From an uncultured virus (IMG/VR IMGVR_UViG_3300028552_000008) (lineage: Duplodnaviria; Heunggongvirae; Uroviricota; Caudoviricetes), in IMG/VR virus record IMGVR_UViG_3300028552_000008: a stretch of 64,000 nt of DNA; one strand, 5' to 3'. A program made the position numbers and the translations under genes. Shown in pieces: positions 6,243 through 51,680 of the stretch. Under the pieces are notes generated by a model. That model did not search any database. It was not told where the DNA came from and worked only from the letters and a program-made list of their open reading frames with translations. How positions within the stretch are numbered: position 1 is the first letter of the stretch; each line of letters begins with the position of its first letter.

Positions 6243-8582
6243 TTACTCAAATGATAACTGCTCTTCCAGTTCTTCTGCAAATTTATGGGTCCCAAATCCT
6301 TTGGCATATGCAAGCCCTGGTATTGGAGATGGTCCCTCCAAACTACTAGAAGCTCCAGTATTGACAGCCTTTATTAATCTACGTTCCAGATTAGTACTAT
6401 ATAAGGTATGCATCCAGTCATGTTCATGTGCTGGGACATCTAATAATCTTTGCATTTCTGGTTCAAATTCAGGTTTTGTCTCATTTACCGTAACATAATC
6501 GATATTATGTTTCTTCAACTCATTAATTACAGTACTGGTGATTCTAGTTCCTATTGTATAGTGTAATTCAGGTATTTCCAAGTATAAACCTTGAGCCATA
6601 TCAGTTCTGACCTTCTTACTATTAGTTCTAGGAGAATAGGCTTTCTCCAGTGTATGATAATTTACTATACTGTCTGGCAAGTTATTCCCTAAGCCTTTAG
6701 GATTGGTTATTTTAACATGAGTAATTAAACCTTTACTTATAATATCAAAATTACGTTTATTTATTCCACCTAATTGACTAGTTTCAAATGTATCTTTAAT
6801 AGCTTTGGAGAAATACCTTCTACCTTCTCCAATACCTTTATGCTTTGTTATTTTAGCTGGATTAGGTATACCATCACTTAACACATCACCTTCTTCAACT
6901 AGCTGGCCTGATTTAACCAATACTTTCAAATCTGGGTGTACATAATATTCTTCAAGTTTTCCATTATCATGCTTAATAACTATATAATGACCTCCTTGTG
7001 GTGCTACTCTTACTTCTTCTATCTTACCATCAGAGTCAGCTATTGGGGCTTCATGGACAAATGAATCCGGGATATTAAATAATTGATTGATGTATTTAAA
7101 GCCACCAAATTGATTAGAACCAGTTGCACTACCTCCCTTGTGCTTACTATTATGTACTATTAAGCCATTCGCTAATACAAATAAAGCATCTTTACTATCT
7201 ACTTCAATATCCCAACATTGTATTAATCCTAGATACTCTGGTTTATTGTATAGTACTACCCAATAATCATTTGTAGTAACTACATCTATAGTTTCATCAA
7301 TATCTTTTAGAGGCATTTCTGTTAATACATTACTACATTCCAGGGTTTCACAAAGTATCTTATGATTCTCTGTAGCATATAGTTCAATTACTTTATCTTT
7401 ATTATCTATAAATATATATTTATTAACAGGTTGTAATCCTTGATTGAATAACCTTAGAACTTTGACTGGAGAGGTTTGACCAGCGTTATCAGAGCCAAGC
7501 ACCATATCTCCGACCTTTATATCTTGAATAGCTTTAATAGAATAATCTGCCATTCTTACTAGTGTTCCTTCAGCTAAACAGTTTAACGCCCCTTGTGCTA
7601 CTGGTTCTGCTGCTGAAGTACCGGCAACAACTCCAATAAAAGAATTAAGTTCAGACAAGCCTTTACCTCTGATACCCACACATAATTGACAAAGAGCACT
7701 AGAAGTTCCATCATGACTAGCTTCACAAGTTATAGGATTTCTAACTACAATCTCTTCTATGCCTTTGCTTTTTAGAATACCCAGCATACTAGAGGTAACT
7801 TCATTATTATAGTGATATTTGTCTATAGGATGAGCTAAGAACGAACCGATGTAATCATTATCATTTGTTTTTACAGGTATTCCATTATGAGTACCACAAT
7901 CATGTTCTTCTATCACCATTGTCATGTTTGCTCTAGCTAATTGCTTGCCTAAAAACCCACCTTCTGCCACTGATAATTTTGTGGCCGCGCTGGCTTGTCT
8001 CGCACCAAAAGTATGTGCCAAATATTGGGGCAAGGTTAATCCTTCAGCAAAAGATCTATCAATAATAAAATCAGTTAGAATACCGCCTTTATTATCGTTA
8101 ACGGCTACTGGGGAGAAAATAGTTTGACGATATTGTTCGGGACTCCCTCTCGCTCCGGCTTTAACTACCTTGGCTAGAGTCTTATTATCTTTAAGGCCTT
8201 CTTCTATTATTTCCTTATTTGCAGTGTCAGAAAACTTGTTGAGCAAATTTGTTAGTTCATCATCTTCTTTCTTTTTAGGTAACTTTTTATCCTTTATGCT
8301 CTTAATCTCTTTATTGAGTTCTTTAAATCTCTCATCTTTAAAGGAGGGTGGAAGCAAGTCACCTAGTCTGACAGTACTACCCAACCTAGTAGCTGATTCA
8401 AACCCAAGTCTAGTTAAATCTGATACTACTTTCTTATAACTATCTTCATTATGCTCTGCTAAATTAGAGAAGAAAGCACCTATATTCTTCTTATCCAAAT
8501 CTTTGCTTTCTATAAATGAATGAGAGTTAGCAGGAGAGTAATGCTTAAGCAGGATTTTGCCTACTGTTGTTACCTCAGACAT
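6243..8582 (-). CDS. rpoC: RNA polymerase beta' C-terminal fragment, intein-containing
   Basis: KAGARGS; SFAEGLT..Y...FGARQ; bridge-helix-like TKLSVAEGGFLGKQL; Zn ligands EHDCGT and C...LCQLC; trigger-loop region AEPVAQGALN|SKHKGG. Confidence 0.92.
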   Translation of the reverse strand: MSEVTTVGKILLKHYSPANSHSFIESKDLDKKNIGAFFSNLAEHNEDSYKKVVSDLTRLGFESATRLGSTVRLGDLLPPSFKDERFKELNKEIKSIKDKKLPKKKEDDELTNLLNKFSDTANKEIIEEGLKDNKTLAKVVKAGARGSPEQYRQTIFSPVAVNDNKGGILTDFIIDRSFAEGLTLPQYLAHTFGARQASAATKLSVAEGGFLGKQLARANMTMVIEEHDCGTHNGIPVKTNDNDYIGSFLAHPIDKYHYNNEVTSSMLGILKSKGIEEIVVRNPITCEASHDGTSSALCQLCVGIRGKGLSELNSFIGVVAGTSAAEPVAQGALNCLAEGTLVRMADYSIKAIQDIKVGDMVLGSDNAGQTSPVKVLRLFNQGLQPVNKYIFIDNKDKVIELYATENHKILCETLECSNVLTEMPLKDIDETIDVVTTNDYWVVLYNKPEYLGLIQCWDIEVDSKDALFVLANGLIVHNSKHKGGSATGSNQFGGFKYINQLFNIPDSFVHEAPIADSDGKIEEVRVAPQGGHYIVIKHDNGKLEEYYVHPDLKVLVKSGQLVEEGDVLSDGIPNPAKITKHKGIGEGRRYFSKAIKDTFETSQLGGINKRNFDIISKGLITHVKITNPKGLGNNLPDSIVNYHTLEKAYSPRTNSKKVRTDMAQGLYLEIPELHYTIGTRITSTVINELKKHNIDYVTVNETKPEFEPEMQRLLDVPAHEHDWMHTLYSTNLERRLIKAVNTGASSSLEGPSPIPGLAYAKGFGTHKFAEELEEQLSFE
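7149..7580 (-). mobile_element. Mini-intein (144 aa, no endonuclease) in beta' C fragment
   Basis: Starts CLAEGTLVRMAD; block B ATENHKI; ends WDIEVD...LANGLIVHN followed by Ser. Confidence 0.92.
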
Positions 8583-8584
8583 AA

Positions 8585-9256
8585 TTAGTGATTGCTATAT
8601 AGTTCAAATAGAGAAGATTTCTTTACTATTTGAAATCTAGCAGGTGTAAGATCTAATACTTTAAGACTGCAAGAAATACCTAATATATCCGCCATAGCTA
8701 AGTGATGATGTCCGTCAAGGATACTATCATTGAGTAACAATATATACTTATTATTATTCTTGGCTTGAAATTTATCGGCTAAAGCTTTCTTACCTAGTTT
8801 AGTCATTTCTTTCTTTATATGAGATTTAGCAGATTCGTAGTTATGTATATCTACTTTAGGTAATAGCTCACTAGTTGTCATACCATAAAGTACGAGTTTG
8901 GTATCTTTATCAGCTCCAGGAGCAAATTTTAATACATCTGCTTGAGTATCTTTGGGTAGGCTATTTACTGTAATATCAGCTACATAAGCAGAAGCAACCT
9001 TGCCAAATTCAGACTTATTCGGTTCAGGTTTAGCTATATCAGGCATCCATTTATCAATTTTTTGGTCAACCTCATCTTTAGTACGATTTGTTAGTGGCTG
9101 ATTCTGTTCCTGGGCATGTAAAGCTGGTTGTTCGATTTCTTCTGTTTCTTCAGCATTAACTAGCTGGTCTAGTAAGGATGAAGCAGCCTTCTTTACTTTT
9201 ACATCCTTGGACTCTGCTGACTTTTCAAGAAATGATTGGATAACATTAAAGTTCAT
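8585..9256 (-). CDS. Protein with C-terminal ParB/sulfiredoxin-like motif
   Basis: ILLLNDSILDGHHHL resembles the I-DGHHR motif; N-terminal SFLEKSA. Confidence 0.5.
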   Translation of the reverse strand: MNFNVIQSFLEKSAESKDVKVKKAASSLLDQLVNAEETEEIEQPALHAQEQNQPLTNRTKDEVDQKIDKWMPDIAKPEPNKSEFGKVASAYVADITVNSLPKDTQADVLKFAPGADKDTKLVLYGMTTSELLPKVDIHNYESAKSHIKKEMTKLGKKALADKFQAKNNNKYILLLNDSILDGHHHLAMADILGISCSLKVLDLTPARFQIVKKSSLFELYSNH

Positions 9257-9258
9257 TG

Positions 9259-9960
9259 TTAGATTTCTGGATTTCCGCCTGGTTCATCTTCACCATTATC
9301 ATATTCACTATCTTCTGATTTTCTATGCTTGCTATATAGATAAGCCCCTAAACCACCTAAACCTGCAGCGCCCAAACCTAATTCATAAGGAACTTTGTTG
9401 TTACTAATATGATTGGATAATACTTCAAATAAAGATTGGGGAGAAATATCATTCTTATGTAAAGCTTGTTCTGCTCCAGTTATAGCTCCATGTATACTAG
9501 GTTTAATAGTAGTATTAGCATTTACATTATTAAATACATTACCTAATCCTTGACCAGCATAATGAGCACCTATGCCTCCACCTACTCCAAGTCCGGCAGC
9601 AGTACCTAGTCCCATGTCACCAACTGATTTACTTTTGAATAGTTTACTCAATACGGATTTGGCATCAATATTAGCTGGTTCTGGTTTACTATTTAATTTA
9701 AGTTGATTTCCTCCAAAGCCATCTAATTTAATCTTATTACTTATAGAACCTAGATTAAGTTTACTAGATGGAAAGTCAGAACTAGAAGGAGCTTTAGGTA
9801 TAGCTAAATTAGAAACAGCTGCCTCTGGTATAGAAGCACCAGTAGCCTCAGTAGCACCAGTAACTTCAGGTTTAAGTACATTAGCCAATTCTTCAAATGA
9901 CTTAATAGGATTTGCAGAAGCTTTAATAAATCCGTTAATAAATGCGTTATTTAGATTCAT
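9259..9960 (-). CDS. Glycine-zipper protein with NAFINGFIKAS leader
   Basis: GLGTAAGLGVGGGIG and GLGAAGLGGLGAYL segments. Confidence 0.75.
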   Translation of the reverse strand: MNLNNAFINGFIKASANPIKSFEELANVLKPEVTGATEATGASIPEAAVSNLAIPKAPSSSDFPSSKLNLGSISNKIKLDGFGGNQLKLNSKPEPANIDAKSVLSKLFKSKSVGDMGLGTAAGLGVGGGIGAHYAGQGLGNVFNNVNANTTIKPSIHGAITGAEQALHKNDISPQSLFEVLSNHISNNKVPYELGLGAAGLGGLGAYLYSKHRKSEDSEYDNGEDEPGGNPEI

Positions 9961-10610
9961 ATACCTAGACCTTGTTGGGGTTGGGCTGATTGTGCTGGTT
10001 GGGTTGGTTGTGCAGGATTACTACCATCCATCGGCCCACTACCATAAATACCTCCACCCATCATACCTTGTTGTTGCTGTTGTTGCATCATTTGTTCTTG
10101 TTGTTGCTTCTGCTGTTCTTCTCTCTGCTTCTGTTGCTCTTCCCTATGCATCTTAGCACGTTCATATTGATGCTTTTCTTTTAATTGTTCAGTCTTCAAA
10201 TGACTCTGTGTTGCCTTCCCGCCACTATGTAAATCTAATAGATCAGCTACACTTAATGTAACTGTAGTATCTTTTAACCCTCTAGACTGTTGTTTTGGGG
10301 CTAAATCATCACTTTGTCCTGGTTGTGGCTGACCTCCCTGACTCAGATCTTGCTGAGGTTGACCCTGGCCTTCTTGTTGCATTCCTTGGCCTTGACCCAT
10401 TTGTTGAGCTAATTGAGCCATCTGTTGTGGGTCTGGTTGTTGACCTGATCCACCTTGACTTGGTTGTGGAGATTGTGAAGATTGTGGAGGTTGAGGTTGT
10501 TGCCCAGGTAAACCTCCTTGTTGTTGAGCAGCAGTACTATTAGGTGATGGTATAAATGCTTGTTTATGCATCATACTACCTATTTCTTCTAAGATTTGTC
10601 TGTAAGTCAT
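9957..10610 (-). CDS. Gln/Gly/Pro-rich low-complexity protein
   Basis: Poly-Q and QPQ tracts after MMHKQA; stop overlaps the next start. Confidence 0.75.
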   Translation of the reverse strand: MTYRQILEEIGSMMHKQAFIPSPNSTAAQQQGGLPGQQPQPPQSSQSPQPSQGGSGQQPDPQQMAQLAQQMGQGQGMQQEGQGQPQQDLSQGGQPQPGQSDDLAPKQQSRGLKDTTVTLSVADLLDLHSGGKATQSHLKTEQLKEKHQYERAKMHREEQQKQREEQQKQQQEQMMQQQQQQGMMGGGIYGSGPMDGSNPAQPTQPAQSAQPQQGLGI

Positions 10611-10673
10611 ATTAAAATTGGTATTATCTCTATTTCAAAGTTCTATCTATTATGGAGATTGATGGTAGTTATA

Positions 10674-12633: not shown

Positions 12634-12639
12634 ATAGAC

Positions 12640-12668
12640 ACAATACGGTGACTAGTTGAACTTGTCAA
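12640..12668 (-). promoter_or_regulatory. Sigma70-like promoter at the intein split point
   Basis: TTGACA (12668-12663), 17-nt spacer, TATTGT (12645-12640), 6 nt, then ATG at 12633. Confidence 0.75.
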
Positions 12669-15418
12669 TTAATTTTCTCTCTATAAATAATATAATCTAC
12701 AATACTATCCGCACCATACCCCTTAAATACTAATGGATTCATTTTAATAGTTTTATCTTTAGAATTTGGATTAGCAATTAAATTAAACCCTAATAGATTA
12801 TATTTATGCCAGGCTGGATCTCGCGTTATAATACCAGGTCTTACTGCCATCTCTTCCTTTAATGCCATAACTGCTAATGGACTATGTTTTTTAACATAAT
12901 CAACCGCACTAATAGCTGGTACACCCTTCATAACCAACCTTCTAATAACAAAAGGTTTATATATCTGCCACAGCATATCTTGAGGTACACTAGCCTGGTC
13001 TACATCCAATCTAGTATCTGGAGTTAACACAGCTCTTCCCACCAAATCCAGACTCTTATTAACCACCTTACTCTGAAACATTGTACTTTTAGCCGTTCCA
13101 CCCTTTAATCCAAACATAGTAGCTAATATACCTTTAACATTCTTATCCTGGTGTTTCTTATTAATTGGATCACCCAAACCAAAGGCAGCTTTTACTCCAT
13201 CATATTCATTTTGTTTTAATTTCCTAACTACTTCGTCCGGCACATTCTCAGTATTTTTAAGTGCATTGTTATTTAGTATGAGGTCTTTATATAGATTATT
13301 AACATCACTAGTTAATACTACATCACCCATCTTACTAGCAGGTCTGTATTGGGCTGGTAGAATAGGTACTTTATGCAACATCAAATCTTTAGGATGTAAC
13401 TTATGTTCTTTTAGTGTAGTGAGAAATTCTAACAATTTAACGGCATCATCTCTTCTAGTCTTCTTCTCACTACCTATATACTTCTTCATTTCTTCTATCT
13501 TCTTATCCAGATCTATATTATTAAGGGCTTTTTCCATTTCCCCATCCACTACCATATCATTAAACTTAAACTTGGTAACTCCTAACAACTTTCTGAGATA
13601 ATCCTCACTAATAGGATTAGGTATGGGATGATTAAGATTTATGTGATTAAACTTGTCACCTAATATGCCTATTATATTAGGATCAAATAGTCCGCCAGGT
13701 TCATGTATTAGTTCTTCTTGATGTGGCTTGAATAATGAAGGTTTCTTAATTTCACCATTACTCAAAGCAGTAGTATCCTTATCTGTTAAAGGTAGGATAT
13801 TAAAGGTATTACCAACTCTATCTACATTAATACCGGCAGCTTTTAAACTATCTATGAACTTGTTAAAGATGAATGGAACTTTAGGGCTGGGTGGGGTTTG
13901 GCCCAATTTAATAGCACGCCAGAATTCATCATTCTGAGTACCTTTAACAGTACCTATATCCTCCAATACATGTCTGACATCATGACTTAGCAAAGCTGTA
14001 GTACCTAAATTTCCTATTCTCTTTGATGAACCACCTTCCACTGCTGACTTACTTGGTTGCCGGTCGAAACTGTATCCGGACCCCTGACTTCTAGTACTTA
14101 GTTTATCTTCACTAATATGAGTTAACCTACTATAGAATAATGGACCTACAACTGCTTCAATATTTCTACCAGTAATTGGATCATATAGTTGTTCAGTATC
14201 ATTTATATTATTCTTCTTTAATACATTAATTACATTCTTAATAGATGAATCCTTTCTAAACTGATCCATTTTAATAGTCTTACCAGTCTTCTCAGCTAAT
14301 TTACCAAGGCCTAGAGTTATGGCTAAGGCTGGTGCAACTCTTGACGTGATGGACATGGAGTTAAGCATGATATCAACTGGCTTCCCATTAGGTAGTAGTG
14401 GAGCTTGTGAGTCTGATACAATCTTCGTTACACCCTTAGCTCCAAAGTAATTAGAAATCTTATCACCAGGTAATAGACTTCTTACCGTCTTGATATGTAC
14501 TGTAATAAGTGGGCCATGTTTGGTTACATCCACTACTTCTCCATCATGTTCGTAGTCCCAGGCTTCTGAATTATCTTTGAATGCATGTTTTAATACTTTA
14601 CTCAGCTTACCTAATGCCAAATCTGTACTCTTTAATGCTCTGGGTGAGTAAGCCAGGATTACCGGGTCTCCAGCTTTCAATCTAGACCCTACTATAACCA
14701 CTCCATCTGAATCTATATTTTTAATTTGATTATTCGTATATTTATTAGGAAATAGTGCTACAAATTTATCCTTGCCTGCCTCTACTCCAAATTTCTCTTC
14801 AATACTAAAATTGATCATTTGTTCTGCTGCCAACTTTTTAGCACCACTTTCAGTCACTGCAAAAGCATCCTCAAAGTTGTCTGAGCGGTACGGGATTATA
14901 GCAGTAGTAAGGTTAGTTCCCATCGCCATATTACCTTCTTTATCATTATAATTACTGTAAGCTATTACTTCATTAGTTTTAACTTTATCACCAACCTTCA
15001 CTTTAGGGGTATGAGTAATAAAGCTTTTCCTGCCTAAATGAAAGTTATTATATAGTTGATAGGTAGACTTGGTTTTATCTGTATTATCTACTTTAATATG
15101 ATTTTCAGTAACTTCAGTAACAGTACCAGGTTTAGTTGCAGTTACAGATAAATAATGTTTACCATATAGTTCTTGAGTACTTTCTTTGTTAGTGTCATCT
15201 GAACTTTCTACTAACGGACGTTCAGGATTTACTAAAGGTATAGCTTGGAGAGAAGCCTTGGCTCCTAGTAACACACGCCCGCCGGAAACTGAATTTAGCC
15301 CAGTAATCATGTTAGTAGGTAAAGCAAATAAATCCCTACTCGAAGGCATGGATATATGATCTTCATTTAGTTTGTCCACCTTCTCAAAATTTCCCTTATT
15401 AAGTACAGTATAACTCAT
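12665..15418 (-). CDS. RNA polymerase beta C-terminal half fused to beta' N-terminal part, ending in a 13-aa IntN
   Basis: Beta motifs LQAIPL, DNFEDA, GDKISNYFGAKG, DIMLN..SITSR, QPSK...GGSSKRIG; beta' motifs GGLFDP, VPILPAQYRP, GRAVL, RDPAWH, NPLVFKGYGAD; start chosen at MSYTV after TATAAT. Confidence 0.92.
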   Translation of the reverse strand: MSYTVLNKGNFEKVDKLNEDHISMPSSRDLFALPTNMITGLNSVSGGRVLLGAKASLQAIPLVNPERPLVESSDDTNKESTQELYGKHYLSVTATKPGTVTEVTENHIKVDNTDKTKSTYQLYNNFHLGRKSFITHTPKVKVGDKVKTNEVIAYSNYNDKEGNMAMGTNLTTAIIPYRSDNFEDAFAVTESGAKKLAAEQMINFSIEEKFGVEAGKDKFVALFPNKYTNNQIKNIDSDGVVIVGSRLKAGDPVILAYSPRALKSTDLALGKLSKVLKHAFKDNSEAWDYEHDGEVVDVTKHGPLITVHIKTVRSLLPGDKISNYFGAKGVTKIVSDSQAPLLPNGKPVDIMLNSMSITSRVAPALAITLGLGKLAEKTGKTIKMDQFRKDSSIKNVINVLKKNNINDTEQLYDPITGRNIEAVVGPLFYSRLTHISEDKLSTRSQGSGYSFDRQPSKSAVEGGSSKRIGNLGTTALLSHDVRHVLEDIGTVKGTQNDEFWRAIKLGQTPPSPKVPFIFNKFIDSLKAAGINVDRVGNTFNILPLTDKDTTALSNGEIKKPSLFKPHQEELIHEPGGLFDPNIIGILGDKFNHINLNHPIPNPISEDYLRKLLGVTKFKFNDMVVDGEMEKALNNIDLDKKIEEMKKYIGSEKKTRRDDAVKLLEFLTTLKEHKLHPKDLMLHKVPILPAQYRPASKMGDVVLTSDVNNLYKDLILNNNALKNTENVPDEVVRKLKQNEYDGVKAAFGLGDPINKKHQDKNVKGILATMFGLKGGTAKSTMFQSKVVNKSLDLVGRAVLTPDTRLDVDQASVPQDMLWQIYKPFVIRRLVMKGVPAISAVDYVKKHSPLAVMALKEEMAVRPGIITRDPAWHKYNLLGFNLIANPNSKDKTIKMNPLVFKGYGADSIVDYIIYREKIN

Positions 15419-15860: not shown

Positions 15861-16530
15861 GTTAGATGCATTTATTAATGGTTTTATCAAGGCTGCTGGC
15901 CCACTCCCTCCACCTCCTCCACCTCCTACACCTCCTACACCTCCAAAAATTCCGATGATTTCATTACCACACAATGCTTATACTGTTGGTGGTCTCCCTC
16001 CAAATATGCATAATTTTGTTAATAAAGGTGGTAATACCCTTAATATAAATGCTCACGGTGGTCCTGATAGTGCTATTAATGGAGAATATGCATTTCAAAG
16101 TGATTCTAATAATTCTAAAAACTTGCTTTATAACAATGAACCACTAACTTATACTCCTCAAACATTGGCTAAACTTATTGGTCCAGCTACTAACAATATC
16201 AATAATATTTATACTACTGCTTGTAATGGTGGGGATTGCTCCAATACTAATGTGAGTCCAAACGAAGTGCTTAAAGGGTTTGCTACTCCAGCTATGTACC
16301 GTAAATTATTCCCTAATCTTACTAACGTTGTTCAAATCCCTCCCAGGCATTATGGTCCATTAATTCCAAGTCAATTTAAGACTAATGAATACCCAGACGT
16401 AGTGAATATAATAAATAGAATTATTAAAGATAGGAATCCTAATGATCCAATAACTACAAGCTTGCCTCATCAATATAATCTACAAGGTGGTACTAATTGG
16501 GTGGATAAAGGGACTTACTATAATTACTGA
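15853..16530 (+). CDS. Protein with DAFINGFIKAA leader, poly-Pro linker and putative caspase-fold (clan CD) His-Cys domain
   Basis: LNINAHGG...TPQTLAKLI...INNIYTTACNGG pattern. Confidence 0.5.
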   Translation: MNKLDAFINGFIKAAGPLPPPPPPPTPPTPPKIPMISLPHNAYTVGGLPPNMHNFVNKGGNTLNINAHGGPDSAINGEYAFQSDSNNSKNLLYNNEPLTYTPQTLAKLIGPATNNINNIYTTACNGGDCSNTNVSPNEVLKGFATPAMYRKLFPNLTNVVQIPPRHYGPLIPSQFKTNEYPDVVNIINRIIKDRNPNDPITTSLPHQYNLQGGTNWVDKGTYYNY

Positions 16531-16531
16531 T

Positions 16532-19387
16532 ATGACAGACCGACACAATGTATATGTAGTTGAATTGGATAAGGAGGTCTTAGCTAAAAAAAAGTTTTTA
16601 AAGTTGAATCCTAACTACAATCCAGAACTACCTCCACTTTATGTAGGAGAGACTGGTTTGAGTCCTGAAGCTAGATTCGAGAAACATAAAACTGGACTAA
16701 AAGCCAATATCTGGGTAAAGAATCATGGGCTTAGACTTAGGCCTGAACATTATAAAGATTTAAATCCCATGCCATTTCATAAAGCTGAAAGAACCGAGGA
16801 ATGGTTGGCAAAGAAGTTAAGGGCTGAGGGTTATCCAGTAGTAGGTGGGAATCCTAGAACCGTACCTTTGAAGAAGGAGGCTGGTGAAGAAGCGTTACAA
16901 CCTCAACAAGCTAGAGTAATTAAGAAGATTCAAGATAAGAATACTTCAGGGTTAGTGCTTTATCATGGGATGGGTAGTGGAAAAGGATTGGTTATAGGCT
17001 CAAAGATATTAACACCTACAGGGTGGATAAATATAGAAGATATAAAACAAAACACAGAAGTGATTTCTGTTAATGGTGTGAAAGCTAATGTGACTGGAGT
17101 CTATCCTCAAGGGTATAAAGATGTGTATAAAATTACTTTTAGGGATGGTGCTACTATAGAATGTGATGATTCTCATTTATGGTTCACTCAATCTAGATGT
17201 GAACGTAAAAATTACGTTAAAAGCAAGGATCAATTTAAATATAGGTGGGTAGGTAAAGTCAGGAGTACAAGCGAAATTAAAGATACAGTATTATCTAATG
17301 ATAATAGTTTAAATTATACTATTCCTATTGTGAAACCTATTCATTTTAAATATAGAAAACTTCCACTAGACCCGTATTTTGTTGGTTTGATTTTAGGAGA
17401 TGGTAGTATTTGTGGAGGTGGCTGTGCGATAACAACAGCAGATGACGAAATTCTGCAATCAATTAAGTCTTTATTTCCAAATTTTACTCTTAAAAAATAT
17501 TCTAAATATACTTATGGATTAGGTAAACCAAAAGGATATAACAGTTACATTGTTCAAGCATTTAAAGAATTAAAATTACAAGGTATGAATTGTTTTACAA
17601 AATTTATACCTGATATTTATATGTTTAACACAGTGAAATCTCGCATAGCATTATTACAAGGGTTAATGGATACTGATGGTACTGTAAGTAAAGATGGTAT
17701 GGCTATAGTTTATGAGTCCGTCTCAAAACAGTTAGCAGATGGTGTGCAATTCCTTGTTGAATCACTAGGAGGTTTAGCAAAGATAACAACTAGAATTCCA
17801 ACATATTCATATAAAGGAGAAAAAAAGAAAGGAGCTTTATGTTATAGGGTTTGGTTAAGTTTACCACCAAATATCAATCCATTTAGATTACACAGAAAAG
17901 CAATTCAAGTAATTCCTAAGACTAAATATAAACCAACTAGATATATAAAAAGTATAGAATATGTTGGAAAAAAAGAGACAATCTGTATTGCAATCGATGA
18001 CCCTTCTCATCTATATATTACTGAACATTGTATAGTTACGCACAATACACGCGAAAGTATTGAATCCTGGAAAGCATTAGGATTACCTAAGACTGATATC
18101 ATTGTTCCAGCTTCATTAAAATCCAACTATCGTAAAGAGTTGCAGAGATGGTATGGCAATTCTAATCCTTCTAATATCAACTTAATTAGTCAACAAAGAT
18201 TTGCTAATTCTAAGTTAAATACTCCAATATACAATACTGGTTTGCAGATAGTAGATGAAGCTCAAAAAGCTAAAAATAGTAATAGTGAATTATATCAAGC
18301 ATTGGTTAAAACGAATCCAGCCAAGCGCCTTCTCCTTTCAGGAACTCCAATTCTAAATGATCCTACTGAATTAAGTAATCTTGTTAACTTAGTAGCAAAG
18401 AAACAAGTATTACCTAATAATTTATCTGAGTTTAAAAAACAATATTTTAAACAGGAAGAAGTTAAACCTGGATTTTTTGGTAGATTAATGGGAGTTTCTC
18501 CAGGCATTCAATATAAGCTACAGAATAAAGCTCAACTATCTAAGATTCTGGATAAGTATGTTGACTACTATAAACCTACTCAAGAAGGATATCCTACTGT
18601 GACGGAGCAAGAAGTTAATGTTCCTATGGGTGCTAAACAACAAGAGATATATGATACAATACTCGGAAAGACACCATTTTGGACACGTTATCGAATTAAA
18701 CATAATTTACCTCCTGGACGTGGTGAATTAGAAGGTATGCGAGCATTTTTAAGTGGACCTAGACAAGTAAGCAATTCAACTGCTGGATTTACTAAAAATT
18801 TAAGAGACGTGGAATCCCCTAAAATAGATGCAGCTTTTAAGTTTTTACAAATACAATTAAAACAAGATCCAAACTATAAAGCTCTAGTATATAGTAATTA
18901 TCTTAATAATGGTCTTAGACCTTATGAATCATTATTAAGAAAGAATAATATACCATTTGGAGAGTTTAGTGGAGCTGTAACACCTACTATAAGAGACCAG
19001 GCAGTTAAAGATTATAATGCTAATAAATTAAGAGCATTATTAGTATCAGGAGCTGGGGCTGAAGGATTGGATTTGAAGGCTACAAATTTGACACAACTTT
19101 TGGAACCTTTTTGGAACCTTCCTAAAGAGAGACAAGTTATCGGAAGATCAGTACGTTTCCATAGTCATGATAGTTTGCCTCCAGAAAAGAGAAAGGTTTT
19201 AGTGCAACGTTATTTTGCCACACCAAAACCTAGTTTATTGGATAAACTTACATTCAATCCCAAACCTACTGGTACAGATTCATATATTAGAAATTCAATC
19301 AGTAAACCAAAAGATAATCTTAATCAAGAAATAACTAATTTAATAGCCAAGAATCAAGAACCTAAATCTTGGCTTAACTACAATTAA
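16532..19387 (+). CDS. SNF2-like SF2 helicase with N-terminal GIY-YIG-like domain and an intein
   Basis: VYVVEL...LYVGETG...RFEKH; YHGMGSGK|T; IVDEAQ; LLSGTP; GAEGLDL; QVIGRSVR. Confidence 0.9.
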   Translation: MTDRHNVYVVELDKEVLAKKKFLKLNPNYNPELPPLYVGETGLSPEARFEKHKTGLKANIWVKNHGLRLRPEHYKDLNPMPFHKAERTEEWLAKKLRAEGYPVVGGNPRTVPLKKEAGEEALQPQQARVIKKIQDKNTSGLVLYHGMGSGKGLVIGSKILTPTGWINIEDIKQNTEVISVNGVKANVTGVYPQGYKDVYKITFRDGATIECDDSHLWFTQSRCERKNYVKSKDQFKYRWVGKVRSTSEIKDTVLSNDNSLNYTIPIVKPIHFKYRKLPLDPYFVGLILGDGSICGGGCAITTADDEILQSIKSLFPNFTLKKYSKYTYGLGKPKGYNSYIVQAFKELKLQGMNCFTKFIPDIYMFNTVKSRIALLQGLMDTDGTVSKDGMAIVYESVSKQLADGVQFLVESLGGLAKITTRIPTYSYKGEKKKGALCYRVWLSLPPNINPFRLHRKAIQVIPKTKYKPTRYIKSIEYVGKKETICIAIDDPSHLYITEHCIVTHNTRESIESWKALGLPKTDIIVPASLKSNYRKELQRWYGNSNPSNINLISQQRFANSKLNTPIYNTGLQIVDEAQKAKNSNSELYQALVKTNPAKRLLLSGTPILNDPTELSNLVNLVAKKQVLPNNLSEFKKQYFKQEEVKPGFFGRLMGVSPGIQYKLQNKAQLSKILDKYVDYYKPTQEGYPTVTEQEVNVPMGAKQQEIYDTILGKTPFWTRYRIKHNLPPGRGELEGMRAFLSGPRQVSNSTAGFTKNLRDVESPKIDAAFKFLQIQLKQDPNYKALVYSNYLNNGLRPYESLLRKNNIPFGEFSGAVTPTIRDQAVKDYNANKLRALLVSGAGAEGLDLKATNLTQLLEPFWNLPKERQVIGRSVRFHSHDSLPPEKRKVLVQRYFATPKPSLLDKLTFNPKPTGTDSYIRNSISKPKDNLNQEITNLIAKNQEPKSWLNYN
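16985..18046 (+). mobile_element. Class 3-type intein (354 aa) with LAGLIDADG endonuclease, in Walker A
   Basis: Inserted in GSGK|T; starts GLVIGSKILTPTGW; DSHLW; GLILGDGS; LLQGLMDTDG; TICIAID; ends IVTHN. Confidence 0.9.
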
Positions 19388-26702: not shown

Positions 26703-26891
26703 GTACAAGTTTCAACCCTGGCGCGCCCAGCAGTAAGCCAACGGTTGCGGTAGGAGGGGGCTGGAGAAGAGTAGTCTTCAGCCCCTATCCTTCCAGTTAC
26801 ATTCAGTAGTAAGTAAACTACCTAGATACTCATAGGTAGTTTACTTACTATTTTGTCATCTAATTTTTTTTGCTAGCGAACAACAAACAAC

Positions 26892-27164
26892 ATGAACATT
26901 TCTTTACTACGAGCACAATATGATAACGCAGGGTCAAGGTCATGGTCAGGGACAAGGTCAGGGTCAAGGTCAGGGTCAGAGTCAGTGTCAAGGTCAAGGG
27001 CAGGGTCAGGGTCAAGGTCAGGGTCATGGTCAGTGTCAAGGTCAGGGTCAAGGTCATGGTCAAGGTCAGGGTCAAGGTCATGGTCAGAGTCAAGGTCAAG
27101 GTCAAGGTCAAGGTCAGGGTCAAGGTCAAGGTCAAGGTCAGGGTCAAGGTCAGGGACATGGTAA
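26892..27164 (+). CDS. Ser/Arg/Gly repeat protein, copy 1
   Basis: MNISLLRAQYDNAG followed by SR/SG/SW dipeptides from hexamer repeats; CAA-rich leader. Confidence 0.55.
   Translation: MNISLLRAQYDNAGSRSWSGTRSGSRSGSESVSRSRAGSGSRSGSWSVSRSGSRSWSRSGSRSWSESRSRSRSRSGSRSRSRSGSRSGTW
26929..27162 (+). repeat. GGTCA(A/G/T) hexamer tandem array 1
   Basis: Seen directly in the sequence. Confidence 0.95.
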
Positions 27165-27602: not shown

Positions 27603-27723
27603 GTGAAGTTAATAGGAGGGGTTGGAGAAGAATAGTCTTCAGCCTCTCCTAATTATATTTAGTAAGCAGTTTACTTACTATTTTGTCATCTAATTTTTTT
27701 GCCAGCTAACAATAACAAACAAC

Positions 27724-28062
27724 ATGAACATTTCTTTACTACGAGCACAATATGATAACGCAGGGTCAAGGTCATGGTCAGGGACAAGGTCAAGGTTAGG
27801 GTCAGGGTCAGGGTCAGGGTCAGGGTCAGGGTCAAGGTTAGGGTCAGGGTCAGGGTCAGGGTCAGGGTCAGGGTCAGGGTCAAGGTCATGGTCAAGGTCA
27901 GGGTCAGAGTCAGTGTCAAGGTCAAGGTCAGGGTCAAGGTCAAGGTCATGGTCAGGGTCAAGGTCATGGTCAGGGACAAGGTCATGGTCAGGGTCAGGGT
28001 CAGGGTCATCGTCATCGTCATGGTCAGGGTCAGGGTCAGGGTCAAGGGCAGGGTCATCGTAA
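27724..28062 (+). CDS. Ser/Gly/Arg repeat protein, copy 2
   Basis: Same N-terminus as the 26892 ORF. Confidence 0.55.
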   Translation: MNISLLRAQYDNAGSRSWSGTRSRLGSGSGSGSGSGSRLGSGSGSGSGSGSGSRSWSRSGSESVSRSRSGSRSRSWSGSRSWSGTRSWSGSGSGSSSSSWSGSGSGSRAGSS

Positions 28063-29768: not shown

Positions 29769-30146
29769 ATGAAACTAACAAAAAGAGCTGATAGATGGTA
29801 TGACGAAAACGATAATAGTTGGTCTACAGAAGAATCAGCTACTACATATTCACCTACCTTAACTAATTGTTATAATTGTAGAGATTGTAATGCTTGTAGT
29901 GGTTGTAGTGGTTGTAATGGTTGTAGAGATTGTTATAATTGTAGTAATTGTATTGATTGTAGAGATTGTATTGATTGTAGTTATTGTGATGAGTGTATTA
30001 ATTGTATTACTTGTAGTGAGTGTAGTAGTTGCAGTAATTGTACTAATTTAATAGATTGTGAACCATCGCCCAGACCTAAAATAATTCAAAATGATACTAG
30101 ACCAGAACTGAATATTAATGATAGAAGGCTAGAACTTGAACTATAA
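29769..30146 (+). CDS. Cys-rich CxxCxxC repeat protein
   Basis: Long run of Cys at every third residue. Confidence 0.7.
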   Translation: MKLTKRADRWYDENDNSWSTEESATTYSPTLTNCYNCRDCNACSGCSGCNGCRDCYNCSNCIDCRDCIDCSYCDECINCITCSECSSCSNCTNLIDCEPSPRPKIIQNDTRPELNINDRRLELEL

Positions 30147-36809: not shown

Positions 36810-37508
36810 GTGAACAATCATATAGATCCATTATATAGTTTGCCTATTCCAAAGAATGTGCGTGGTTTTTTCGATCCAGAGAAGACTAGGGAATGGTTAC
36901 ATACTAAAGCCTTGGATTCTTTTCAGAAGAAGCTTAATACAATTGAAAGTCCAGCCTACAAACTAAAAGTAACAGACTTATCTTATAATGCTCCTGAACA
37001 TTCTCCAACTTATAAAGAACAAAATAAGGCTATAATGGAGAAAAGAGATTTGTCCACTCCATTACGAGGTACTTTTCAGATGATAGATAAGAAAACTGGT
37101 AATGTATTAGATACCAAAACTACAACTATCGCTCATATCCCCTGGCTTACTGAAAGGAATACAGTAATCTTACATGGTGCGGAATACTCAGTTGCACATC
37201 AACAACGTTTACTACCAGGTGTCTATACTCGTACTAAGGAATCTGGAGAAGCTGAAGCCCACATCAATGTCTTACCTGGAACTGGAGTAGGTGGCAAAGT
37301 AATTTTTTACCCTGACCGTGCATTATTCGTTTATCAAGTTGGAACTACTCAAATTAAGCTATATGGATTACTTAAAGAAATGGGCGTATCTGATAGTGAG
37401 ATGGAGAAAGTTTGGGGTTCTGAAATATTCAATAAAAATAAATCTCAATATACTGGACTAGAATTTGATAAATTGTATAATAAAGTCATAGGTAATGAAG
37501 AAGAATAA
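36810..37508 (+). CDS. rpoB: RNA polymerase beta N-terminal fragment
   Basis: DLSTPLRGTFQMIDKKTG and AHIPWLTERNTVILHGAEYSVAHQQRLLPGVY match the beta regions 'Y..PLR' and 'IP.MT..GTFIING.ERV.V.Q..RSPGVY'. Confidence 0.85.
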   Translation: MNNHIDPLYSLPIPKNVRGFFDPEKTREWLHTKALDSFQKKLNTIESPAYKLKVTDLSYNAPEHSPTYKEQNKAIMEKRDLSTPLRGTFQMIDKKTGNVLDTKTTTIAHIPWLTERNTVILHGAEYSVAHQQRLLPGVYTRTKESGEAEAHINVLPGTGVGGKVIFYPDRALFVYQVGTTQIKLYGLLKEMGVSDSEMEKVWGSEIFNKNKSQYTGLEFDKLYNKVIGNEEE

Positions 37509-37520: not shown

Positions 37521-37805
37521 ATGTCGAACGAAACACAATTAGAACAGCAATTGAATGCTGAATGGAGAAAAACTATTAAAGATAATCTTGAAGAACTCAG
37601 GACTGGTCAAAAACAATTAGCTAAGGATATTACTGATATTAAGCTAAGTTGTGCTCAAGCAGATGAAGTAAAAAGTCTGAGAGAAAAGGTCGAAAAACTT
37701 GAATTATCTAAAGCTAAAACTACTGGAGTATTGGTAGCCGTAAATGTGATATTAATTTTTGCGGGCTGGTGTATTCAGACTTTACTGCTTGTACATCATA
37801 GTTAA
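37521..37805 (+). CDS. Coiled-coil protein with C-terminal TM (possibly holin/XhlA-like)
   Basis: Heptad-rich N-terminal part and hydrophobic C-terminus. Confidence 0.55.
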   Translation: MSNETQLEQQLNAEWRKTIKDNLEELRTGQKQLAKDITDIKLSCAQADEVKSLREKVEKLELSKAKTTGVLVAVNVILIFAGWCIQTLLLVHHS

Positions 37806-38452
37806 GCAGGCCTTCTTCTTTCATTTCTTGGTAAGTTGAATTGTAGATATTTCTCATACTTTCTAGTCAGTCCAATTCTGTCTTCTAGAAAGCCTTGATA
37901 AATATAGTTACCGAATTTATAACCACCACAAATGCTAGGTATAACTATTCTAGAACCCTTATGTCCAGTTTTTTTATTAATCTCCCTCCCTATTCTATAA
38001 TGAATCTCCATAGGTAATACTAATTTCTCAAAAGCAGACCAATCTTGAGTGTAGGGACCACAAATACTATAAGAACAATGACCATCTCTGGATATACAAA
38101 AACAACCATCCCCATCACTGTAACCCCTCCACCAGTAATGAGTTAGGTTTTCAGGTATAATGCTTAATATTGTAGGAGCTTGATCTTTACTTCTATAATT
38201 GTAACTAATTAATTTAGTTGCTAATTCTACACTACCTTTTTGAAAACTCATTTGTAATTGCCCTGGTGGATTTGTTTTTTGTATATTTCTACGTATATTC
38301 CAATTCCAGGCTTTCATAAGTGTTGGTTCAATAATTACTGCATCAACTTGTTTTATAGCTATTTTAATTTTATTTTCTTTAGATATAGACCCGTCGGCCC
38401 AGATAAATCCTAACGTATATGCTGTCTCTGCTGTTATATTAGTTAAATCCAT
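37802..38452 (-). mobile_element. Free-standing LAGLIDADG homing endonuclease
   Basis: AYTLGFIWADGSI and WWRGYSDGDGCF; antisense to neighbours; TTGACA-N17-TACTGT-N6-ATG. Confidence 0.85.
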
Positions 38453-38586
38453 ATAATGACAGTACACATTAGCTACCACGCTGTCAATATTATAGCGCAT
38501 ATATCTGTTGACTAAACTTATAATAATAGTTAATATAGAAATATACGAATAAACAATTATGTTTATTTTAACTAATTATACAATCT

Positions 38587-46051: not shown

Positions 46052-46054
46052 TAT

Positions 46055-49000
46055 ATGGCTTTTGATGCCCATTCAAATCTAGCAATATCACAAGTAGCCA
46101 CTGCTCCATCACCACCTACTTCTGGTACTTCACTAACTGTAACTACTGGTCAGGGTGCATTATTTCCTACTCCCCCATTTAATTGCACTGTCTGGCCTTC
46201 AGGTGTTATACCTACTACAGTTAATGCTGAGATTATTAGGGTTACTGCAGTTGCCACTGATACATTTACTATAACTAGAGCACAAGAAGGAACATCTGCT
46301 GTATCTATTGCTGTAGGATACCAAATAGCCAATACTGTTACTAAAAAGGTAGTTACAGATATTGAAAATGCAATTCCTACTACGTTACCTCCTAATGGTT
46401 CTGCTAGCGGTGATTTATCAGGTAGTTATCCAGGTCCTACAGTAGCAAAGATTAACGGCACTTCTTTAGCAGGATTAGCTACAGGGTTATTAAAGAATAC
46501 TACTGGTACTGGTGTTCCTAGTATTGCAGCGTCTGGTGATTTGCCTGGTGGGCCATATTTAGGTGCTACTGCCTCTGCTTCTGGTGATTTATCAGGTAGT
46601 TATCCAGGTCCTACAGTAGCAAAGATTAACGGTACTTCATTAGCAGGTCTTGCTACCGGTATACTTAAAAACACTACTGGTACTGGTGTTCCTAGTATTG
46701 CAGCGTCTGGTGATTTGCCTGGTGGACCTTATCAAACGACAGCATCTTATGGTGTGTTAGGGTTTTCTTCAGTAGCTACAGCTGGAAGTACAACTACATT
46801 AAGTGGATCAGCTACTAATTATATAATTTTTACTGGTACATTAACTCAGATTTGTGTACTACCTAATGCCACTACACTTTCTAATGGGGCGTCATTCTTT
46901 ATTGATAATAGTTCAACTGGAGCTGTTACTGTAAATATGAATGGTGGAACTACTTTATGGATTGTAGGAGCTGGAGCATTTTTAGAGTTAGTATTAACTA
47001 GTAATGGAACTTCAGCTGGTACCTGGAATACTCAATATTTTGGTAGTACGGTATCAACAGGAAAAGTCATTAACTTAGCTGATAATTTAACATCAGTAGC
47101 CAATACTCCAGGGGTATTTCAGAATGATGGAAGTGGTAATATATCTTACGGTCCACCACCACCTACTATAACCCAACTTGATCTTTGGGGACATTCCTGG
47201 CTTGATGATATAGTTTATATTACTGGCGCAAATCAAATTACTGATCCTGCTGAAATATTAAATAACGTACTTACAAATGCTTTGGGAATTTCTCAAGATA
47301 GAGTAAGAAATCATGCTAGGAGTGGTGCAAACCTTACGTCTCAAGGATGTTTAATGGGCGGTTATATGAGGTTTTTAACTGAAATAACTCGTACCAAAAA
47401 ATATTCTCCATTTTATCGACAAGGTGGTTTATCTGTAATTGTATATGGTATTAATGATTTAGGTAATAATACATCAGCTAATCAATCATTAATGCGCTCA
47501 GTATTTTCGCAAGCCTTAACCATGGCTATTAGTAGAATAAGAGCTTCAGCTATTTTTCCTTGTGGCACTGGGTTAGCTCAATGGGCTTTTGGTACTAATT
47601 ATGCAGCCGGTCCAGTAGCTAACCTTGAGTGGATGTCTACTGTTGGAATGCAAGCAACAGTAGTAGATTCTGGTGGTACTTCTACAGCAACTTTCACCAT
47701 TCCATTTGGCTATAAAGGAGAACCAATAGGATTTCTATTAGTTGGTACTTCCGGAGCAACTTCAGGTATTGTTACTTGGGGTGGAAATATTACTGGAACT
47801 AGTGGTATTATTGGAACTACTACCACTTTAAACTCTACTTCCATAGATGCTCATGGACCTGTATTCGTTAGATGGACTTCTGGTACTAATGGATTATCAG
47901 CTGCTAATGCTGGTCAGACTATTACTATCAAGGTAACTACTGCGAGTGGGACAGTACAATTAGATTCAGCCTGGATTGAATCTCTTAAACCAAATCCTGT
48001 AGTTGTAGCCAATGTATATCAATGTGATTGTAGAACTATTACTTACGCTTTAGGGGATGGGGTAACTTCTGGTGTTACTACTTCTTTTACTTCTGGTTCA
48101 GCCAATTTTAATTCAAGTACTGATGCTGGAAATTCAATAACTGAGACTGATGCTCAAGGTGCTTTTACTTCTGGTAAGACTATTTCATCTGTAACTAATG
48201 CAACCACCATAGTATTATCAGGAAATGCTACTGGTGCTTTTACATCCATTAAATATACTTTTGGGCGTATTTTAAACGGTTACGCTAATTATGCTACTAA
48301 TACAGATTTTAGTGGGGCAACTCCAGCTAGTCATAGTGCAGCAGACACAGATTTACAAAATTTAAATAGCACAATTACTACAGTAGTTAATTCATTCGAT
48401 TCAATGGTTCAATTAGCTGACGTAAATACAGCTATGGGGATTGGTGGAACTGGAACTCTGCCTACTAACGTCTATACAACATCTGCTGATGGTTATCATC
48501 CTAATGCGGTTGGAGCAGCTTTGGCAACTAATGCTATATTTGCTGCTATTAAGAAGCTAGTACCTGTTGCTGATGGTTTAGGGACTCTAGGTGTATTAGA
48601 GACACAGACTCCACAAGGTTATCCAGTCGCTCCTAAACGAAATATTATTCGTCCTGGTAGTAATGTTTATTTACCTGAATTTGGTGTTTGGGGTGCTACA
48701 TATACTGCAGTTGCTGGTGATACGTTTGCTATTCCTTTCTGGGTATCAGAAGGTGGGGCTAATATTACTGCATTCCAAGTACAACAAACCAATGCTCCTG
48801 CTACAGCTGGATCTAACGTAAGATTTGGTATTTATGATGATACTATGTTTACAGGTTATCCTTGTAACCTTAGATATGAAGTTACATCAGGCGGTGCATT
48901 TGCGATGGGAACTACTGCAGCTATAAAGACTATTGGAACTAATACTTTTGGATGGCTACGATCAGGACTTTATTGGCAAGTATTTAAGATAGATTCCCTC

Positions 49001-49207: not shown

Positions 49208-49211
49208 TGAA

Positions 49212-50975: not shown

Positions 50976-50993
50976 GAAGCCCTCTTCTTTCAT

Positions 50994-51680
50994 TTAGTAT
51001 TCAGGGATTAATACTTGTTTATCTAGAATTTCTTTGTGACTCATCCATTTAAGTTTTCCGTGCTTATCCTTCATAATCCTATATAAATTACAATCTGCTC
51101 CTTTAGCTACATTTTGATTTATATAATTAGTAACACCTATCTTCGTGTTTTCTGCAATATGAACGGGATCATAAAAGCCAAAACTAGAAGGACTTACATT
51201 TCTAGATTCATCTGGTATTGCTGACTCTGATACAATTCCTCCCTGCCCCATCTTAGTTACTTTATGACTATTATCAAAGTGTTCTAATGGATTAATACCT
51301 TCAACGTTATTAGCTAAAGGATTTCCTACAATAACCGACCTGACTTGCTGAGAGAAGAAACCAGGAGTAAGCCAGTTAAGATTCTTTTTCATTTGCATTT
51401 TATAAGCTGCTTTTTGTTGTATTTTACCTGCATCCTTATTTATATGGTCGGCTATAAAATCCTCTAGTCCCATAAATTTGGAGAATTTAAGGTTATCTCG
51501 ATCATCACCTTCAACCTCACCTTTATTAATCTTAATTAATTTTGCTGAACTAGCTAATAAGACTTGGGGACTTATTTTATCCTCATCTACTCCAATATTA
51601 TTCTTAACAATATCTTTATCTAGGGAGGTATGATTTAACCATTCCTTAAATTTAGTTAGTTTCTCGGTTCTAGTTAACAT
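50994..51680 (-). CDS. rpoB: RNA polymerase beta middle fragment (Rif-pocket/fork region)
   Basis: DDRDNL; INPLEHFDNSHKVTKMGQGGI; RNVSPSSFGFYDPVHIAENTKIG, compared with NPL.E..HKRR....GPGG and RDVH.SHYGR.CP.ETPEG.NIG. Confidence 0.88.
   Translation of the reverse strand: MLTRTEKLTKFKEWLNHTSLDKDIVKNNIGVDEDKISPQVLLASSAKLIKINKGEVEGDDRDNLKFSKFMGLEDFIADHINKDAGKIQQKAAYKMQMKKNLNWLTPGFFSQQVRSVIVGNPLANNVEGINPLEHFDNSHKVTKMGQGGIVSESAIPDESRNVSPSSFGFYDPVHIAENTKIGVTNYINQNVAKGADCNLYRIMKDKHGKLKWMSHKEILDKQVLIPEY

Follow-up and report, generated by a model that had tools for sequence, protein, structure and literature searches.

A 64,000-nucleotide stretch of DNA from an uncultured virus of the class Caudoviricetes (IMG/VR record IMGVR_UViG_3300028552_000008), referred to throughout as the window, raises the question of how a multisubunit RNA polymerase (RNAP) is built from genes that are scattered over both strands, and in which the DxDGD loop that forms the catalytic metal site is itself cut in two. 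The initial annotation had listed five dispersed pieces of such an enzyme. The analysis described here indicates that these pieces make one bacterial-type, alpha-less RNAP of the type encoded by phage Arash, and that the two parts of the DxDGD loop are separated by a predicted split intein, the halves of which are encoded by adjacent open reading frames (ORFs). Since the catalytic loop is cut by a split intein, the enzyme is probably stitched together after translation, and a single Arash-type polymerase with a trans-spliced catalytic chain is considered the probable explanation for the locus as a whole.

Assignment of the dispersed pieces to one polymerase

Searches of the window with the RNAP proteins of phage Arash (tblastn; Gp206, 1525 aa, and Gp216, 606 aa), together with subunit profiles, Pfam models and chains from the Protein Data Bank (PDB), bore out the identification of all five stretches as RNAP segments at the positions first assigned to them, as well as their spread across the window (Table 1). 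RNAP domains were recognised by Pfam in four ORFs. One amendment is required: the 90-aa β′ piece is not a gene of its own but the C-extein at the end of a 573-aa ORF (P0002; 10912-12633, minus strand), the first 483 residues of which are intein. Gp206 residues 12-227 aligned with positions 36867-37505 (+), residues 240-469 with 51650-51000 (-), residues 484-1434 with 15394-12707 (-) and residues 1402-1524 with 11268-10921 (-), while Gp216 residues 1-397 aligned with 8585-7386 (-) and residues 342-599 with 7100-6291 (-). The end of the C-extein coincides with that of Gp206 (residue 1524 of 1525), and the β′-C protein (P0003) begins at residue 1 of Gp216.

The β-N protein (P0004) matched bacterial β chains in the PDB with a best E-value of 2e-07 and corresponds to positions 40-215 of the rpoB profile PRK00405, and the β-middle protein (P0005), which scored 26 bits against the Pfam family Rpb2_3 (cut-off 21), aligns to residues 426-576 of Escherichia coli β and to PRK00405 positions 312-470. 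The fusion ORF (12665-15418, minus strand; P0001) carries Rpb2_6, Rpb1_1 and Rpb1_2 in one reading frame, and the β-β′ fusion noted initially is thus real; the Rpb2_6 match, which represents the β catalytic barrel, reached 154.7 bits against a cut-off of 23.4. The fusion chain matched residues 620-1156 of β and 254-540 of β′ in bacterial PDB chains, with E-values of 5.8e-43 and 3.3e-23 respectively, in agreement with the earlier description of its motifs as bacterial-like, and it occupies PRK00405 positions 534-1093 followed by TIGR02386 positions 157-442. The C-extein matched residues 453-542 of β′ in the PDB (E 3e-09) and TIGR02386 positions 439-534, and P0003 matched TIGR02386 positions 549-1068 (E 8.6e-55) and the Pfam family Rpb1_5 (53 bits, cut-off 28.5). 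The β barrel motif GDK...GAKGV is visible in P0001, and the bridge helix, trigger loop and DxDGD loop are likewise present in the pieces, the last as GAD at the end of the N-extein and SDGD at the start of the C-extein, which become contiguous only after the splicing proposed below.

The possibility that fragments of two different enzymes had been combined was considered and rejected. The pieces ascend along PRK00405 and TIGR02386 without real overlap, in keeping with the initial view of them as parts of one polymerase, and Rpb2_6 is present as a single copy per record in all five records searched; because of these two observations the pieces are assigned to one enzyme and not to two.

Table 1. 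Coordinates of the RNAP and intein features in the window
Feature	Length	Position	Strand	Content
β-N gene (P0004)	232 aa	36810..37508	+	N-terminal protrusion and start of lobe
β-middle gene (P0005)	228 aa	50994..51680	-	Fork / rifampicin-pocket region
N-extein, β-C fused directly to β′-N (P0001)		12707..15418	-	Ends ...GYGAD, the final D being the first Asp of DxDGD
Intein N-fragment	13 residues	12668..12706	-	SIVDYIIYREKIN, then stop codon TGA at 12665-12667
Spacer between intein halves	31 nt	12634..12664	-	Read from sequence
Intein C-fragment	483 aa	11185..12633	-	Ends in Asn483; two-motif LAGLIDADG homing endonuclease
C-extein	90 aa	10915..11184	-	SDGDQLNVHIP...; rest of metal loop and following β′ segment
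β′-C gene (P0003)	779 aa	6243..8582	-	Bridge helix, trigger loop, C-terminal modules
Mini-intein in β′-C trigger loop	144 aa	7149..7580	-	Cys335 to Asn478, then Ser+1

Anatomy of the split intein

The upstream gene reads ...KGYGAD, continues into the tail SIVDYIIYREKIN and then stops, whereas the intein sequence of the downstream ORF ends ...KN and is followed directly by SDGDQLNVHIP; the insertion point therefore lies between GAD and SDGD within the DxDGD loop. The DxDG(D/H) loop is unbroken in 117 of the 120 homologues listed, for example as KGYGADSDGDQLNV in P0052, which places the intein between the first and second catalytic Asp residues. The C-fragment matched the Pfam family LAGLIDADG_3 (32.8 bits, cut-off 22.5) and aligned to an archaeal polymerase-subunit model that contains an intein. 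Its AlphaFold model (mean pLDDT 79.3) retrieved the TliVMA intein (7qss) as the best match in a Foldseek search, with an E-value of 6.5e-18, followed by PI-PfuI, PI-TkoII and PI-SceI. The residues expected of a Class 1 intein are Ser919 of P0001 (Ser1) and Asn483 and Ser484 (Ser+1) of P0002, all of which are conserved in the three split sequences available, and the block B His82, the block F Asp465 and both LAGLIDADG motifs are invariant in the same three.

The reading frame shifts by one across the spacer, and the downstream frame contains a TAG 21 nt before its ATG. A sequencing or assembly error was discounted as the origin of the break, given that the 201-nt junction is letter-identical in 11 of 11 loci checked, from five public records, and that the ORFs are split in two divergent relatives also. 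An RNA-level intron at the split was looked for, and Rfam found none in the window. Both ORFs are covered in part, with at least 99% identity, by contigs from three RNA libraries. One metatranscriptome-library contig is collinear across the spacer (35 nt on its shorter side), and no joints were seen; the cover of the stretch is partial, and carry-over of DNA into these libraries is possible.

Conservation of the split and modelled docking of the halves

Termination after GAD is confined to three of the 120 homologues listed, all of which carry a tail of 13-14 aa of the form S-x-[VI]-D-[YH]-I-[IV]-YREK. Besides the window sequence these are P0012, with the tail STIDYIVYREKLTS and an extein that is 75% identical to that of the window, and P0013, with the tail SVIDHIIYREKLTS and an extein that is 72% identical. 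A search with the 573-aa protein correspondingly retrieved exactly two relatives of near full length, P0128 (57% identical) and P0129 (55%), and the three partner ORFs start at the same residue, with M-x-x-YKYT (MINYKYT, MNNYKYT and MNTYKYT). For P0013 and P0129 alike, the contig of origin is listed with a length of 9,834 bp. The inteins are thus more diverged (55-57% identity) than the exteins (72-75%), yet the halves are still divided at the same point and retain both the tail and the catalytic residues, a pattern of conservation which indicates that the split is real and probably selected. Scans for further examples at the DNA level with an intein alignment recovered only this phage among viral contigs (three of three loci), and this phage together with mostly C-extein-only matches among metagenome contigs (38 loci); scans with P0216 and P0277 for the DNA of divergent split relatives found nothing.

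Modelling of the tail in complex with the C-fragment gave a score of 0.80, compared with 0.00 for the best of three controls, and passed a mark that 116 of 157 solved complexes attained, as did 2 of 215 mismatched pairs. The docking runs share at least 34% of their contacts, with a pLDDT of at least 46 for the partner. In the model the interface is formed by residues 902-916 of the upstream chain and residues 2-12, 36-40 and 458-478 of the C-fragment, with tail residues 909-914 as a strand on residues 5-11 and 36-40, near the C-terminal splicing blocks. As structures of split inteins have been solved, the pass may reflect likeness to known structures, and the docking accordingly supports association of the two halves as opposed to any particular chemistry.

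Proposed trans-splicing and its alternatives

Trans-splicing of the RNAP catalytic chain is the most likely outcome of this arrangement, as judged from the conserved residues and the modelled complex. Under the proposed mechanism the first gene would yield β-C::β′-N with the 13-residue N-fragment attached, and the second would yield the 483-residue C-fragment, including the homing endonuclease, followed by the 90-residue C-extein. The 13-residue tail would then dock and supply the first strand that the intein fold lacks, and Ser1, the terminal Asn and Ser+1 would perform a cysteine-free trans-splicing reaction, giving a chain of ~994 aa with the junction GYGADSDGDQLN, the same as the uninterrupted sequence of intein-free relatives. 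The junction predicted in this way reproduces KGYGADSDGDQLNV, which is contiguous in P0063 and P0071 as it is in P0052. The mini-intein in the trigger loop of β′-C would be removed by cis-splicing. The more specific proposal, namely that the element is a natural split intein, active and cysteine-free, with an N-fragment of 13 residues and a working endonuclease, and that the metal loop of the virion RNAP exists only after trans-splicing, is put forward with guarded preference.

Several features weigh against this interpretation. The C-fragment scored only 27.7 bits against the Pfam family Intein_splicing, below the cut-off of 35.8, and the penultimate His of block G is missing, its place being taken by K in two of the sequences and by C in the third, although some active inteins lack this residue. 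The fold of the tail was modelled with a pLDDT of just 46-48, from complex alignments of three rows each. A further invariant histidine, His60, is preceded by Ile or Val, and in the available text of Pasch et al. (PMC10189870) the critical histidine of motif NX in Ser1 inteins is stated always to follow Arg or Lys, so that the match of His60 to this histidine is doubtful. The low domain score, the lost penultimate His and a docking result that speaks for association rather than chemistry would all suit a situation in which the halves associate without splicing, the RNAP being held together non-covalently with an intein of ~500 residues retained in its metal loop or shed by C-terminal cleavage. 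Nevertheless, Ser1, Asn483, Ser+1 and the block B His have remained invariant in all three sequences while the inteins diverged to 55-57% identity, an intein lodged between the first two catalytic Asp residues would be hard to square with metal binding, as judged from bacterial RNAP structures, and the loop is unbroken in nearly all listed relatives (117 of 120); this alternative is accordingly regarded as unlikely.

Joining of the two ORFs during translation was also considered, with the intein made as one contiguous chain by frameshifting or by ribosome hopping over the stop codon and spacer, as reportedly occurs in gene 60 of phage T4. A simple frameshift was rejected, since the TGA of the upstream frame is followed by a TAG in the downstream frame. 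Hopping was suggested by two copies of the sequence ATTAAT, one close before the TGA and the other close after the ATG, and a small 4-bp hairpin, read by eye, is possible over the stop codon. The relatives do not support it, however, as their tails end ...KLTS and their partner ORFs begin MNNYKYT or MNTYKYT, leaving no matching take-off and landing residues, and the initial Met of the partner ORF has the same position in all three sequences. The lack of a Shine-Dalgarno sequence before the second ORF is uninformative on independent initiation, because 58 of the 62 gene starts in the window lack one. Translational joining is thus considered highly improbable. Scarcely more credible is the view that the interrupted gene is a decaying pseudogene and that the phage depends on the polymerase of its host, even though a stop codon within an essential motif and the failure to find an alpha subunit might appear to favour it: the five ORFs are intact throughout, each of the 11 loci checked has the identical junction, the split is kept with both halves intact in two lineages with exteins 72-75% identical, and the RNA-library contigs, subject to the possibility of DNA carry-over, cover parts of both ORFs. 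Trans-splicing therefore remains the preferred reading of the split.

Gene layout in related phages

Homologues of the fusion chain are numerous (1134 at E ≤ 1e-10, on contigs of up to 293 kb), and 112 of the 120 listed are 983-1008 aa in length, extending from β-C through β′-N and the metal loop to a point ~90 residues beyond it. In five related records from uncultured viruses (G002-G006; 134-204 kb in length, with a completeness of 93% or more in four), the same four genes, namely β-N, β-middle, the β-C::β′-N fusion and β′-C, occur in the same relative order and orientation without exception. Stand-alone frames of 219-252 aa for β-N, 237-270 aa for β-middle and 617-645 aa for β′-C are present in all five, and the distance from β-N to the fusion gene is ~7-9 kb in four of the records and 18 kb in G002, as compared with 21 kb in the window. 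In cultured Arash and Vibrio phages D69, D148 and D181, with ~30% identity, β and β′-N form one gene product of ~1525 aa, accompanied by a β′-C protein of ~606 aa, and in Yersinia phage YerA41 β′-N, β′-C and β are encoded by separate genes.

The breakpoints are consequently less unusual than the initial annotation had supposed, as the fusion and the β′ break are the same in Arash, where they are embodied in Gp206 and Gp216 of a described phage, and in D69, D148 and D181, while the additional splits within β recur in all five uncultured relatives. The suggested separation from the phiKZ and AR9 lineages was upheld: when the fusion chain was compared with 50,697 phage records (tblastn, E ≤ 1e-5), 38 records matched, and neither the 30 matches listed nor the organism tally included a phiKZ-like or AR9-like phage. 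Taken together, the comparisons indicate a distinct RNAP lineage whose break points are family-wide and in part already present in a described phage.

Subunit composition, sigma factor and the virion

Consistent with the initial annotation, neither an alpha nor a sigma gene was found in the window by Pfam searches of 31 ORFs and PHROGs searches of 64 ORFs. The alpha families PF01193 and PF01000 also failed to match in any of three virus records, two of which are 100% complete, whereas the controls matched in 14 of 14 genomes. The N-terminal zinc ribbon of β′ is absent as well, there being no cysteine in residues 547-640 of P0001, between the end of β and the clamp, where ~85 residues stand in place of ~157 profile positions. 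The β lobe is reduced by ~40 positions at the first break, as measured against PRK00405.

Outside the window, in the 151-kb virus record of which it forms part (G001), an ORF of 213 aa amid structural-looking genes (16052-16693) is sigma-like, with a score of 28.8 bits against the Pfam family Sigma70_r3 (cut-off 25.3), and the mature enzyme probably uses a phage-encoded sigma-like factor. The weakness of the matches to sigma regions 2 and 4, at only 12-13 bits, counts against that assignment.

With regard to the virion, the available text of PMC10585845 reports that mass spectrometry of Arash virions detected Gp206 more than any other protein (3516 spectra), along with Gp216, the sigma factor Gp10 and the helicase Gp217, a homologue of which is encoded in the window (tblastn, E 7e-74). 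Both of the polymerase chains, Gp206 and Gp216, were abundant in these data. By analogy, virions of the phage described here probably carry the RNAP, a possibility already raised in the initial annotation, and would use it for early transcription. Two points detract from the analogy: the authors of the Arash study caution in the same text that abundant enzymes might contaminate virion preparations (PMC10585845), and Arash is a relative with only ~30% identity.

The rifampicin-pocket region of β-middle reads ...NSHKVTKMGQGG in the phage, as compared with ...THKRRISALGPGG in E. coli β. Several of the positions that differ are presumably rifampicin contacts, and the sequence thus suggests that the enzyme is probably insensitive to the drug.

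Other inteins and mobile elements

The mini-intein in the trigger loop of β′-C lies between ...EPVAQGALN and SKHKGG, begins with Cys, and has a standard His-Asn end (VHN). It is positioned two residues before the trigger-loop histidine and matches the Hint and Hom_end_hint families as well as TIGR01443 (intein_Cterm; 18.7 bits, cut-off 15.6). Residues 2-334 and 478/479-779 of P0003 correspond to directly adjoining sequence in all five relatives, in frames of 617-645 aa, and these relatives are therefore considered to lack the mini-intein. A representative search revealed homologous inteins at neighbouring positions of the DxDGD loop in many long polymerase chains. Judged by its sequences, the RNAP of the Arash-type family is an intein hot spot.

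In relatives P0011, P0039 and P0062, inteins of ~345 aa beginning with Cys are found at two further conserved β sites, after RSQGTGY and between GDK(V/L) and SNAWGAKGV. Many distant stand-alone ORFs of 440-740 aa (P0216, P0224 and P0277 among them) start a few residues before the conserved 'DFP' strand of homologous inteins, which are inserted after the DFDGD of the loop and before the following T, three residues downstream of the site in the window; such ORFs may represent repeated splits with short N-fragments, or else artefacts of gene calling.

The SNF2-type helicase gene of the window (16487-19387, plus strand), which encodes the Gp217 homologue, has its P-loop cut between GMGSGK and T by a LAGLIDADG intein of 354 aa (~16985-18046). 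This intein begins with Gly instead of Cys or Ser, has Trp two residues past the block B His and Cys in block F, and ends T-H-N, a combination which is taken here to fit the 'class 3' pattern. Free-standing endonuclease-like genes are also present, one of LAGLIDADG type at 37802-38500 (minus strand; phrog_4645, E 1.5e-20), 300 nt from the β-N gene, and one of HNH type at 55806-56528 (plus strand), beside a ribonucleotide reductase gene.

The window and its source phage

The window is AT-rich phage DNA (33-44% G+C in 4-kb windows) and matches positions 44574-108591 of the 151-kb record G001 with 99.97% identity, the sole differences over 64 kb being an 18-bp in-frame indel at 29993 and a substitution at 1396. 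It also matches a metagenome contig of 218,290 bp (L039) at 100%, and is part of a large peat phage with a genome of at least 218 kb. A Shine-Dalgarno-like motif precedes only 4 of the 62 gene starts, which points to a host not reliant on such sequences. Neither transfer RNA genes nor Rfam families at the gathering threshold were found in the window.

Two pairs of direct repeats, each with ~90% identity, were noted. The first (26838-27162 and 27668-27994) sits in a stretch at 20-28 kb with 40-44% G+C, as opposed to ~34% elsewhere, in which ORFs without family matches occur on both strands, and the second (46400-46558 and 46574-46732) lies within a tail-fibre-like gene. Three ORFs of 217-233 aa at 8585-10610 (minus strand), located between the intein gene and β′-C on the same strand, had no Pfam or PHROG match.

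Significance and comparison with known systems

If the proposed mechanism is correct, RNAP activity in this phage hangs on the meeting of two gene products, and construction of the transcription machinery would require one trans-splicing and two cis-splicing steps, in the polymerase and the helicase. The enzyme is also a single RNAP in which β and β′ are re-partitioned so that both catalytic barrels reside on one polypeptide, and a natural experiment on a minimal bacterial-type core, with neither alpha nor the β′ zinc ribbon and probably with a sigma factor, and on the cuts that such a core tolerates. The family to which it belongs is very large, as judged from the 1134 homologues, and almost unstudied.

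Arash and Vibrio phages D69, D148 and D181 possess the same seamless junction of β-C to β′-N, β′ is broken ~90 residues after the metal loop in Arash as in the window, and the Arash-type fusion chain is ~30% identical over 96% of the fusion chain described here. The Arash-type phages and this phage alike have an SNF2-type helicase gene next to an RNAP gene and encode sigma-like factors, and no alpha was found here. The principal difference is that β is whole in Arash, in one piece with β′-N, whereas in the window and in all five uncultured relatives it is divided among three genes on both strands. The Arash genes moreover appear to lack the inteins described above, since the tblastn alignments match extein parts only. 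Among the sources consulted, PMC10585845 is the only publication on the family; Gp206 is called 'subunit beta' there, and the letters 'fus' occur nowhere in the main text as available. The RNAP genes of D69, D148 and D181 are unannotated equivalents of those for Gp206 and Gp216.

The phage polymerases described in a comparative review of jumbo phages, in the portion available, are of the phiKZ and YonO types only. Like the enzyme described here, the phiKZ and AR9 RNAPs are phage-encoded and alpha-less, with split β and β′ subunits and a virion-packaged form, but according to the sources available in part these phages have two enzyme sets, no sigma and very divergent sequences, as against one set (five of five records) and a sigma-like ORF in the present case; the break points differ also, and the bacterial-like motifs and β::β′ fusion distinguish this enzyme further. 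With respect to cellular systems, the fusion chain matches the NCBIfam 'subunit beta/beta'' models PRK09603 and PRK14844, which relate it to the fused rpoBC genes of Helicobacter and Wolbachia; cellular rpoBC fusions join a complete β to a complete β′. The cyanobacterial rpoC1/rpoC2 (gamma/β′) split and the β′ break share one inter-region zone, but the phage break precedes the end of the gamma model by ~65 profile positions, with P0002 ending near position 551-560 of 626.

The novel element at this locus would appear to be the split intein of the catalytic loop, which combines an endonuclease with an N-fragment of 13 residues and the activity of which is predicted from sequence and modelling. 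'Fractured genes', in which a free-standing endonuclease gene lies between the halves of a split intein, were reportedly described by Dassa et al. in 2009. The endonuclease in fractured genes is a separate ORF between halves that are split at the canonical site, whereas here it is inside the C-fragment and the split falls in the first hairpin of the intein. A full-text literature search found no paper on a split intein in a phage RNA polymerase. The jumbo-phage match was the PolB of phage MIJ3 (PMC6892783), an example of such a fractured gene, in which an intein likewise breaks a phage polymerase gene and a homing endonuclease plays a part. Nor did the literature examined, part of which was available in excerpt, describe a split intein with its endonuclease still housed in one of the halves. 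If the endonuclease works, the element would mark a transition from mobile maxi-inteins to streamlined split inteins.

The closest parallel is PolB16 OarG (Pasch et al. 2023, PMC10189870), which is also naturally split near its N-terminus, employs Ser1 and Ser+1, and is cysteine-independent; from the available text, it interrupts a polymerase gene carried by an uncultured virus-like sequence. Its N-fragment of 15 aa is termed "the shortest characterized to date" in the same text (PMC10189870), and a 2026 paper, available in part, gives 15-37 aa for natural N-fragments and names PolB16 as the only natural cysteine-less atypically split intein. An active N-fragment of 13 residues would be shorter than this 15-residue record in print, and as a Ser1/Ser+1 fragment could be useful for semisynthetic labelling as a new, peptide-sized ligation tag. 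The two inteins differ in that the PolB16 OarG C-fragment has 168 aa and no endonuclease (PMC10189870, text available in part), whereas here an N-fragment of 13 aa (14 in relatives) is paired with a C-fragment of 483 aa that bears an intact-looking LAGLIDADG domain, and in that the host gene encodes PolB in the one case and RNAP β′ in the other, splicing being proven for PolB16 and predicted for the intein in the window.

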